Of a stretch of DNA of 64,000 nt, positions 11,839-13,328 are shown one piece after another. The notes under the pieces are model-generated. The model worked only from the letters and a program-made list of their open reading frames with translations. It made no database searches and was not told the DNA's origin. The stretch is from assembly GCA_043802485.1 (NCBI GenBank), contig JAZDKZ010000005.1:1-64000 (forward strand), in the 5' to 3' direction. How positions within the stretch are numbered: position 1 is the stretch's first letter; each line of letters opens with the position of its first letter. Source of the DNA: Candidatus Aenigmatarchaeota archaeon. Its GTDB lineage: Archaea > Aenigmatarchaeota > Aenigmatarchaeia > Aenigmatarchaeales > Aenigmatarchaeaceae. The translations under genes were made by a program, and so were the position numbers.

Positions 11839-11953
11839 TGCCCCCACAGGGATTTGAACCCTGATTTGCGGCTTTCCTCAGTCATCTTTGGGATCATATC
11901 CTTCGAATGAGTTCGAAGGGCCGCAGTCCTTAGCCGGATTAGACGATAGGGGC
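11839..11953 (-). tRNA. tRNA-Glu(TTC) with 40-nt intron at 37/38 (11874-11913)
   Basis: GCCCCTA/TGGGGGC acceptor, GCGGC/GCCGC anticodon stem, 4-nt variable loop, CAGGG-TTCAAAT-CCCTG; BHB central helix CCTT/GAGG; C rather than T at 33. Confidence 0.8.
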
Positions 11954-12475: not shown

Positions 12476-12589
12476 CGCCGAGGGTGGGATTTGAACCCAC
12501 ATGCCCTTTCAGGCACTAACTTTCCGCCATTGATAGCAGGCTAGCGCACCACCAGATTATGCGTTCGAGGATTGAATATCTACCTCGGC
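12476..12589 (-). tRNA. tRNA-Ser(GCT) with two introns (8/9: 12564-12581; 37/38: 12522-12533)
   Basis: GCCGAGG/CCTCGGC acceptor, G73, CTAGC-CT-GCT-A..A-GTTAG, long variable arm; both inserts form BHB-type motifs. Confidence 0.88.
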
Positions 12590-12590
12590 A

Positions 12591-13253
12591 TTAAACGCCC
12601 TCGGCAATAATTCTTTGAAATTTGATGCTTTTATTACTATGTCTAGAACCAACGAGCTTGATGAATTTTTTAACAGATTTTGTTTTCAAAAGCAATTCAA
12701 AACTTGGAAGTCTTCTCGCATACGGCCCATTTAATGAATACTCCAATCCAAAAGAATCCAGGAGCAAGCATAACGACTCCAAGCCATTTCTGTTGGAAGA
12801 ACTAAACCTTATTCTGGGTGTACTCCTTGTAAAATCTACTGAACCGTCACCGTCAAAGAATCCTCGAATGAAGGCCAACTTTATTTTATCATTAGATTCA
12901 AGCACGCATTCGGGAACATCCCATTTCAAGCAACCCAATTTCACATATCTTAAAAGGTCTCTTATGATGTTCTTTTTTGTTATACAAACCCTAAAAACGT
13001 TTTTGTTGCTTTTGGTAATTTTTGGTTCATAATCATACGCTATAGAAAGCAGCTTTACAAAATGCTCAAGCAAGGGCATGTCCGTATTGCTAAATTCTAT
13101 TATTTCTTTCCACCTCTCCCTGAGAAAAACCGCCTTTCTCCGTCTATCCTTCTCAAAATACATGTCATAATAACCCCTATGGTTGCCTTCAGCGCACAAT
13201 AAACCTAAAATTTCAGCTTTTTCAGGGGTTATTTCAAGGTTCATAGAATTCAC
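12591..13253 (-). CDS. Free-standing double-motif LAGLIDADG homing endonuclease
   Basis: KAEILGLLCAEGN and AFIRGFFDGDGSV motifs, IEFSNTD, IRFSSSN; no intein Cys1/His-Asn ends; AT-richer; start may be ATG 13244. Confidence 0.88.
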   Translation of the reverse strand: MNSMNLEITPEKAEILGLLCAEGNHRGYYDMYFEKDRRRKAVFLRERWKEIIEFSNTDMPLLEHFVKLLSIAYDYEPKITKSNKNVFRVCITKKNIIRDLLRYVKLGCLKWDVPECVLESNDKIKLAFIRGFFDGDGSVDFTRSTPRIRFSSSNRNGLESLCLLLDSFGLEYSLNGPYARRLPSFELLLKTKSVKKFIKLVGSRHSNKSIKFQRIIAEGV

Positions 13254-13328
13254 ATTTTTCCTGATAAAAATTTATATATCTATAGTATAATTTATTAATA
13301 TCAATATAACATTTTTGGAGGAAATAAA

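Follow-up and report, generated by a model that had tools for sequence, protein, structure and literature searches.

An intron at position 8/9 of an Aenigmatarchaeota tRNA-Ser(GCU) gene, an upstream copy of its acceptor strand and a neighboring LAGLIDADG gene

Some archaeal tRNA genes carry short non-canonical introns outside the anticodon loop, which are cut by protein at a bulge-helix-bulge (BHB) motif of the 3-4-3 kind. In the passages of a review of archaeal introns that we drew on, position 3/4, found in some Thermoproteales, is the extreme, and 8/9 is not among the positions listed in the text, which run from 20/21 to 59/60 "etc." in addition to 3/4 (Yoshihisa 2014, PMC4090602). Here we describe an 18-nt intron at position 8/9 of the tRNA-Ser(GCU) gene in a 64,000-nt stretch of DNA from Candidatus Aenigmatarchaeota archaeon (JAZDKZ010000005.1, positions 1 to 64,000; hereafter the window), which is contig C5 of a 769-kb genome, G000, that is 89% complete. 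The insert is a non-canonical BHB intron of a known kind: it shares with the introns described in those passages the protein-cut 3-4-3 motif, its place outside the anticodon loop and the company of a second intron at 37/38 and, like the 3/4 introns, it lies so near the 5′ end that its motif must borrow leader bases. The points of note are an exact copy of the 5′ strand of the acceptor stem in the leader, a spare strand that the same passages do not mention, and the likely vehicle of the intron, a nuclease gene.

Several other systems resemble the locus in part, as judged from the portions of each source that were covered. In the split and permuted tRNAs of Nanoarchaeum, Caldivirga and Thermofilum (PMC3218864, PMC4033280, PMC3978253), the leader also helps to build the BHB. 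Those genes have separate or inverted halves and use leader-trailer pairing, whereas the exons in the window are all collinear within 114 nt, making the gene neither split nor permuted, and the leader replaces an exon strand. In the tRNA-Thr(GGU) gene of Caldiarchaeum subterraneum, an insertion left a tRNA fragment, a rebuilt gene and an extra intron (Sugahara 2012, PMC3293823), as may have happened here; there, a recombinase is predicted and the intron is at 24/25, whereas the window has a LAGLIDADG nuclease and an intron that would need a leader copy. Collaborative homing, as described for T7-like phages and a cyanophage, likewise places the nuclease gene beside rather than inside the intron, such that joint spread is possible (PMC10448857); it concerns group I introns in protein genes, with cleavage shown, whereas in our case the tRNA gene is chromosomal, the intron is of the BHB type and cleavage is a prediction. 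A 2026 preprint on tRNA genes with interruptions in Asgard archaea also describes repeated gain of non-canonical BHB introns that annotators miss (bioRxiv 10.64898/2026.10.13.758758). The parts of it consulted report few insertions in the acceptor stem or at junctions and leave the route of arrival open, and its main text, to the same extent, makes no mention of "leader", "homing" or "LAGLIDADG". The literature searched, which did not extend to figures or to the main position catalogues (these may list 8/9), yielded neither an 8/9 tRNA intron nor a leader copy. Passages of PMC5829648, PMC4390854, PMC3239211, PMC11291895 and PMC8450103 contain neither, and the supplements of the last two, as far as they were seen, hold no table of intron positions.

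We determined the position of the intron by comparison with a same-genus genome, G003, whose tRNA-Ser(GCU) orthologue (locus L003) lacks both inserts and reads U8-C9-G10. Minus its two introns, the window gene equals this orthologue at 82 of 84 positions, and the two mismatches form one compensated pair of the T stem. Because removal of both introns reproduces the intronless gene bar that pair, the 8/9 register and C9 are fixed; furthermore, the first base of the insert is not C9 and its last base is not U8, so the junction cannot slide. Junctions at 9/10 and 10/11, which an earlier note on this DNA had named as possible refutations, are ruled out, as the orthologue has C9 and a valid motif exists at 8/9 only. 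Neither a second GCU gene nor a second GCU anticodon arm was found in the 89% complete genome, whose long open frames make common use of AGC and AGU codons (4,530 occurrences). A 26-nt pattern for the exact junction had no match in metagenome contigs, although the genome's own or near records possibly lie outside those searched. Judged from these comparisons, the 18-nt insert is almost certainly a real, spliced intron. The gene scores only 29.5 bits with Rfam RF00005 and is not called by ARAGORN, and genomes with such genes therefore appear to lack essential tRNAs.

The motif has the 4-bp central helix, two 3-nt bulges and flanking helices of archaeal BHB tRNA introns. Leader bases A-2 and U-1 together with G1 and C2 form the outer helix with G10-U13 (4/4 Watson-Crick pairs), C3-G6 form the central helix with 12569..12566 (4/4 pairs) and the inner helix has 3/3 pairs. 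When the insert was shuffled 200,000 times, 0.07% of the shuffled sequences gave the four central pairs and two inner ones. Cuts predicted after base 2 of each bulge would restore a normal tRNA, identical to that of G003 bar the compensated pair. A-2 (12591) is the final base of the TAA stop codon of an upstream LAGLIDADG open reading frame (ORF). The earlier note, made from the sequence of the window, had proposed the 8/9 position with its U8-C9 product, the strict motif and the borrowing of two leader bases, one of them from the stop codon, and all of this agrees with the orthologue and the pair check. The note had located the motif correctly, with one base too many (12559..12592 rather than 12559..12591), and mentioned neither the 37/38 intron nor the acceptor copy.

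The copy lies 16 nt upstream of G1. Folding probabilities and energies were computed with ViennaRNA, and tertiary structure is outside this model. With the copy, the central helix has a probability of 0.97 for every leader from 19 nt up to the whole ORF, and pairing of the copy with bases 66-72 reaches 0.99. When the leader is the 9-nt linker alone, the central helix falls to 0.25, and a 3-nt leader gives 0.016, with the ordinary acceptor stem at 0.98. The competition between BHB and acceptor stem that the earlier note had foreseen is thus apparent in the model. Its two leader bases do enter the outer helix, but they are insufficient in the model without the copy. Constrained energies are −47.1 kcal/mol for the full BHB with the copy, −44.7 kcal/mol for the cloverleaf and −37.1 kcal/mol for the full BHB with the copy unpaired; without the copy, the full BHB is therefore 7.6 kcal/mol worse than the cloverleaf. 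These values point to the upstream copy as a likely splicing aid.

We surveyed other archaeal genomes for the same arrangement. A Ser-type pattern gave 58 matches in 371 genomes of the class; of the 30 examined, 10 proved to be tRNA genes interrupted at 8/9, and each of the 10 has a copy upstream. From a generic pattern (187 matches in 149 genomes, 150 listed) 30 loci were taken, to which 40 regions chosen by eye were added. A GTDB-wide pattern scan, which informs on presence only and not on range, returned at least 120 matches, mostly chance bacterial ones, and added at least eight archaeal 8/9 genes (copy in 8/8), whose record titles name Bathyarchaeia, Thaumarchaeota, Nitrososphaerales, Woesearchaeota and an unnamed archaeon. 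A parser run over all collected loci recovered 53 genes; after removal of L243, a false 8/9 call, 40 had introns at 8/9 and 12 at 9/10. Defining a copy as at least 6/7 identity within 60 nt upstream, we found one in 32/40 genes with 8/9 introns, 6/12 with 9/10 introns and 5/119 control tRNAs without such an intron (4/49 for controls of at least 96 nt, which have introns elsewhere). By eye, the 8/9 genes comprise Ser, Ile, Lys, Arg, Asn, Phe and Met as well as Cys isotypes, and 17 different acceptor sequences are each copied.

The copies show signs of being kept for pairing. Transitions within them preserve pairing with the 3′ acceptor strand in 15 cases and break it in 1, with available sites at 133:133; distinct transition events keep pairing in 12 of 13 (p 0.002, kinship ignored). 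For the 38 copy-bearing genes, the central helix exceeds a probability of 0.5 in 25 with the native leader; replacing the copy leaves 9, and shortening the leader to 3 nt leaves 2. The corresponding numbers for copy-less genes are 10/14 with the native leader and 0/14 with 3 nt. Among the nearest 12 relatives of the LAGLIDADG protein, an independent set reached from the protein side, a copy is present in 4/4 with an 8/9 intron and 0/8 without one. The best TATA-like site stands 30-39 nt before the copy in 10/25 genes and at that distance before the true G1 in 0/25, compared to 62/89 controls, suggesting that the copy is transcribed.

The 9/10 introns occur in L069, L073, L083, L217, L220, L230-L232, L235-L237 and L249; half of these twelve genes have a leader copy, and the leaders of the others pair with the D arm. 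In the copy-less 8/9 tRNA-Arg genes L214, L215, L229, L238, L239 and L240, the leader complements 5-10 D-arm bases. Such D-arm-complementary leaders may be a second way of forcing the BHB. The linkers of L042, L043 and L045, 44-53 nt long and upstream of G1, seemingly contain a further BHB intron (by eye), with words that we take to be box C/D-like.

The reading that we favor, with a probability of roughly three in four, is that the strict BHB is cut by the host EndA while the copy likely pairs with the 3′ acceptor strand and frees the true 5′ strand. It builds on the insert, register, motif and copy observed in the window and on genes for the enzymes in the same genome. G000 encodes a single EndA unit of 182 aa. 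This unit resembles the M. jannaschii enzyme most closely (best match 1a79), and its short loop insert aligns to N. equitans 3iey_A. The genome also has an RtcB gene and an RNase P RNA gene. In the sources consulted in part, alpha4-type EndAs require the strict motif, and alpha4 EndAs with an L3 loop accompany more disrupted tRNAs in DPANN; the strict motif in the window fits the former requirement.

The ORF and tRNA would be co-transcribed from the old tRNA promoter. A TATA-like site upstream of the ORF has the best score between 12400 and 13330, the identical motif is present 31 nt before G1 in G003, and the site likely drives ORF and tRNA as one transcript. As for an internal promoter near the ORF end, the best score within 110 nt of G1 is 4.8 against a control median of 7.1, and this candidate was rejected. 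In the transcript, the copy would close a stand-in acceptor stem, EndA would cut both bulges and RtcB would join U8 to C9. The true strand would then swap back, and RNase P cleavage at G1 would irreversibly remove the copy, a step that would depend on the L-shape and tertiary structure, both outside the folding model, and on RNase P pulling the swap through. The order given in the earlier note, with splicing ahead of the RNase P cut at G1, is soundly inferred, and the copy might be an earlier RNase P site. The intron probably masks the endonuclease target.

The ORF has a double LAGLIDADG motif with acidic residues at both motifs in the alignment, as in homing endonucleases. It ends 2 nt before G1 and lies outside both introns, which sets it apart from rRNA-type intron-encoded endonucleases. 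In G003 and G001, neither of which contains a match to the ORF, the tRNA is driven directly from a promoter position that the ORF separates from the tRNA in the window; the site is thus fixed and patchily occupied, empty in G003 and G001 and filled in G000 and G002. A protein search of the 371 genomes found matches in 93, of which 29 were examined besides the window's own. Each of the 12 nearest relatives (E ≤5e-29) terminates where a tRNA on the same strand begins; by sequence, six of these tRNAs are Ser and six are Cys. For most of the 17 weaker matches this does not hold. Among the 12 tRNAs, four have an 8/9 intron with a copy, four a D-loop intron with no copy and four neither, giving 8/12 with an intron at 8-18. 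The closest relative, in G247 (another family), shares 51% protein identity and adjoins a 22-nt 8/9 intron resembling that of the window; an equal match to the free part of this intron arises in 0.11% of shuffles.

We also looked for leftovers of the original tRNA 5′ ends at 11 loci, with G072 added later. Intronless orphan 5′ ends lie upstream of the nuclease ORF in G068, G148, G143 and G072, G199 and G002 retain bases 1-8 only, and G156 and G012 have degenerate 6/8 matches. The non-nuclease locus L083 has no leftover 5′ end. The orphan 5′ ends and the likeness to G247 support intron gain by cassette invasion, and from these sequences we think it somewhat probable that ORF, copy, new 5′ end and intron came jointly as a homing-endonuclease cassette. 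The LAGLIDADG protein is predicted to cut the intronless allele. Only tentatively do we extend this to the general proposal that nuclease cassettes swap tRNA 5′ ends for intron-protected ones, with 8/9 versions carrying a leader strand-swap switch essential for splicing.

A number of results weigh against these interpretations. The model minimum, at −52.0 kcal/mol, retains the D stem together with a 5-bp helix that is slipped, with the full BHB 4.9 kcal/mol higher; the BHB competes with the D stem, and the outer helix reaches a probability of only 0.055. The exact motif would therefore have to be captured by the enzyme. In the model for G000, the copy is still favored (0.94) once the intron has been spliced out in silico, and the spliced true-paired fold is lower in only 4/38 genes; the median gap fell from 7.5 to 5 kcal/mol upon splicing, with other introns left in and no tertiary structure. 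The central helix does not form in the model in 13/38 genes despite the copy, and 8/40 genes with 8/9 introns have no copy. The 40 candidate regions were selected by eye with the leader in view, some of them without a copy, and the genomes are kin, such that the counts are non-independent and the p-values overstate significance. With regard to the cassette, no orphan 5′ end was found at the G000, G087 and G106 loci, most 8/9 genes now have no adjoining ORF, G002 lacks an 8/9 intron despite having the ORF and a decayed copy, and 4/12 nearest-relative tRNAs have no intron in 7-21. It follows from the last two points that the cassette does not require the intron.

The intron could be real and the copy no more than a scar that duplication or insertion of the cassette left behind, with EndA binding and the two leader bases sufficing for splicing, in line with the earlier note's picture. 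Insertion at tRNA 5′ ends does leave visible duplicates in G002 and G199, the G000 copy lies inside coding sequence, and the copy-less genes evidently manage. We consider this explanation unlikely, as the substitutions are biased 15:1 toward keeping 3′-strand pairing, an intact copy is found in none of the eight cassette genes without an 8/9 intron (that of G002 having decayed), the full BHB loses to the cloverleaf by 7.6 kcal/mol without the copy, and the copy-less genes have leaders that mostly pair with the D arm instead. That the model favors the copy even after splicing is what nested splicing would predict, in which a second BHB then removes the linker and inner strand and the copy becomes the mature 5′ end. 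The copy out-pairs the inner strand in some genes, and four central pairs are possible at some register in 15/38. No such helix exists in G000 at registers 1-7, the repeat unit is shorter than 10 nt in 5/38 genes, and most of the 15 positives involve palindromic strands or are rich in G-U, leaving nested splicing a very improbable account.

Least probable of all, at the margin of consideration, is that the gene is a broken pseudogene or an assembly artefact and is never spliced. The incompleteness of the genome and the lack of exact junction matches in metagenome contigs would allow for it. Against it, this is the sole GCU-anticodon gene found for a common pair of codons, its exons are intact with a compensated pair, its motif is strict, the same design recurs in 40 genes and G247 has a similar intron. 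The strand-swap reading, in which the copy stands in for the true 5′ strand until EndA has cut, shows how an intron can occupy a site where the cutting signal destroys the acceptor stem. If true, it would represent an RNA folding step not previously described in tRNA maturation and, with the cassette, a general route by which tRNA genes gain introns, common to small-genome archaea, Woesearchaeota, Bathyarchaeia and Thaumarchaeota. Such a route is testable and speaks to the question left open by the Asgard preprint.

Table 1. Coordinates of features at the tRNA-Ser(GCU) locus of the window
Feature	Position	Strand	Basis or remark
tRNA-Ser(GCU) gene with two introns	12476..12589	(-)	Rfam RF00005; match to intronless G003 orthologue
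tRNA-Ser(GCU) landmarks	G1 12589; U8 12582; C9 12563; anticodon 12538..12536; acceptor 3′ strand 12483..12477; discriminator G 12476	(-)	
Intron at 8/9, 18 nt, strict hBHBh' motif	12564..12581	(-)	Pair check; G003 comparison
Whole BHB (outer, central and inner helices, two 3-nt bulges)	12559..12591	(-)	Sequence; pair check
Intron at canonical 37/38, 12 nt	12523..12534	(-)	Alignment with G003
Linker from copy to G1, 9 nt	12590..12598	(-)	Holds ORF stop and two outer-helix leader bases
Exact copy of acceptor 5′ strand (bases 1-7)	12599..12605	(-)	In last codons of LAGLIDADG ORF
Double-motif LAGLIDADG ORF, 217 aa	12591..13244	(-)	ATG 13244, GTG 13253 possible; Pfam PF14528, E 2e-16
TATA-like site	13269..13278	(-)	Score 9.1; at tRNA promoter position of G003 and G001

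Other loci show variations on this arrangement. In L275 (G072), the new tRNA-Ser 5′ end brought by the cassette is intronless, and its sequence is not that of the orphan old end, which may reflect immunity by substitution. L287 (G106:C17) has a 15-nt 8/9 intron in a tRNA-Ser(UGA) gene, with a copy 57 nt upstream, and faces a LAGLIDADG ORF with internal stops. ORFs that are not LAGLIDADG occupy the same place upstream of 8/9 genes at L253:736-1137, L269:91-921 and L255:583-1164; two of these are related, with a weak match to PHROG endonucleases, and the third is unassigned.

Three further tRNA features were noted in the same genome. The window has an intron-containing tRNA with a UUC anticodon at 11839-11953 (-), which we read by eye as Glu and which ARAGORN with introns calls Arg. 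At G000:C6:219794-220321 (+), tRNA halves about 450 nt apart appear by eye to be a tRNA-Ala(UGC) with an unusually long intron. A tRNA 3′-end fragment at G000:C6:30643-30727 (-) directly follows the rtcB gene and is possibly an integration scar.
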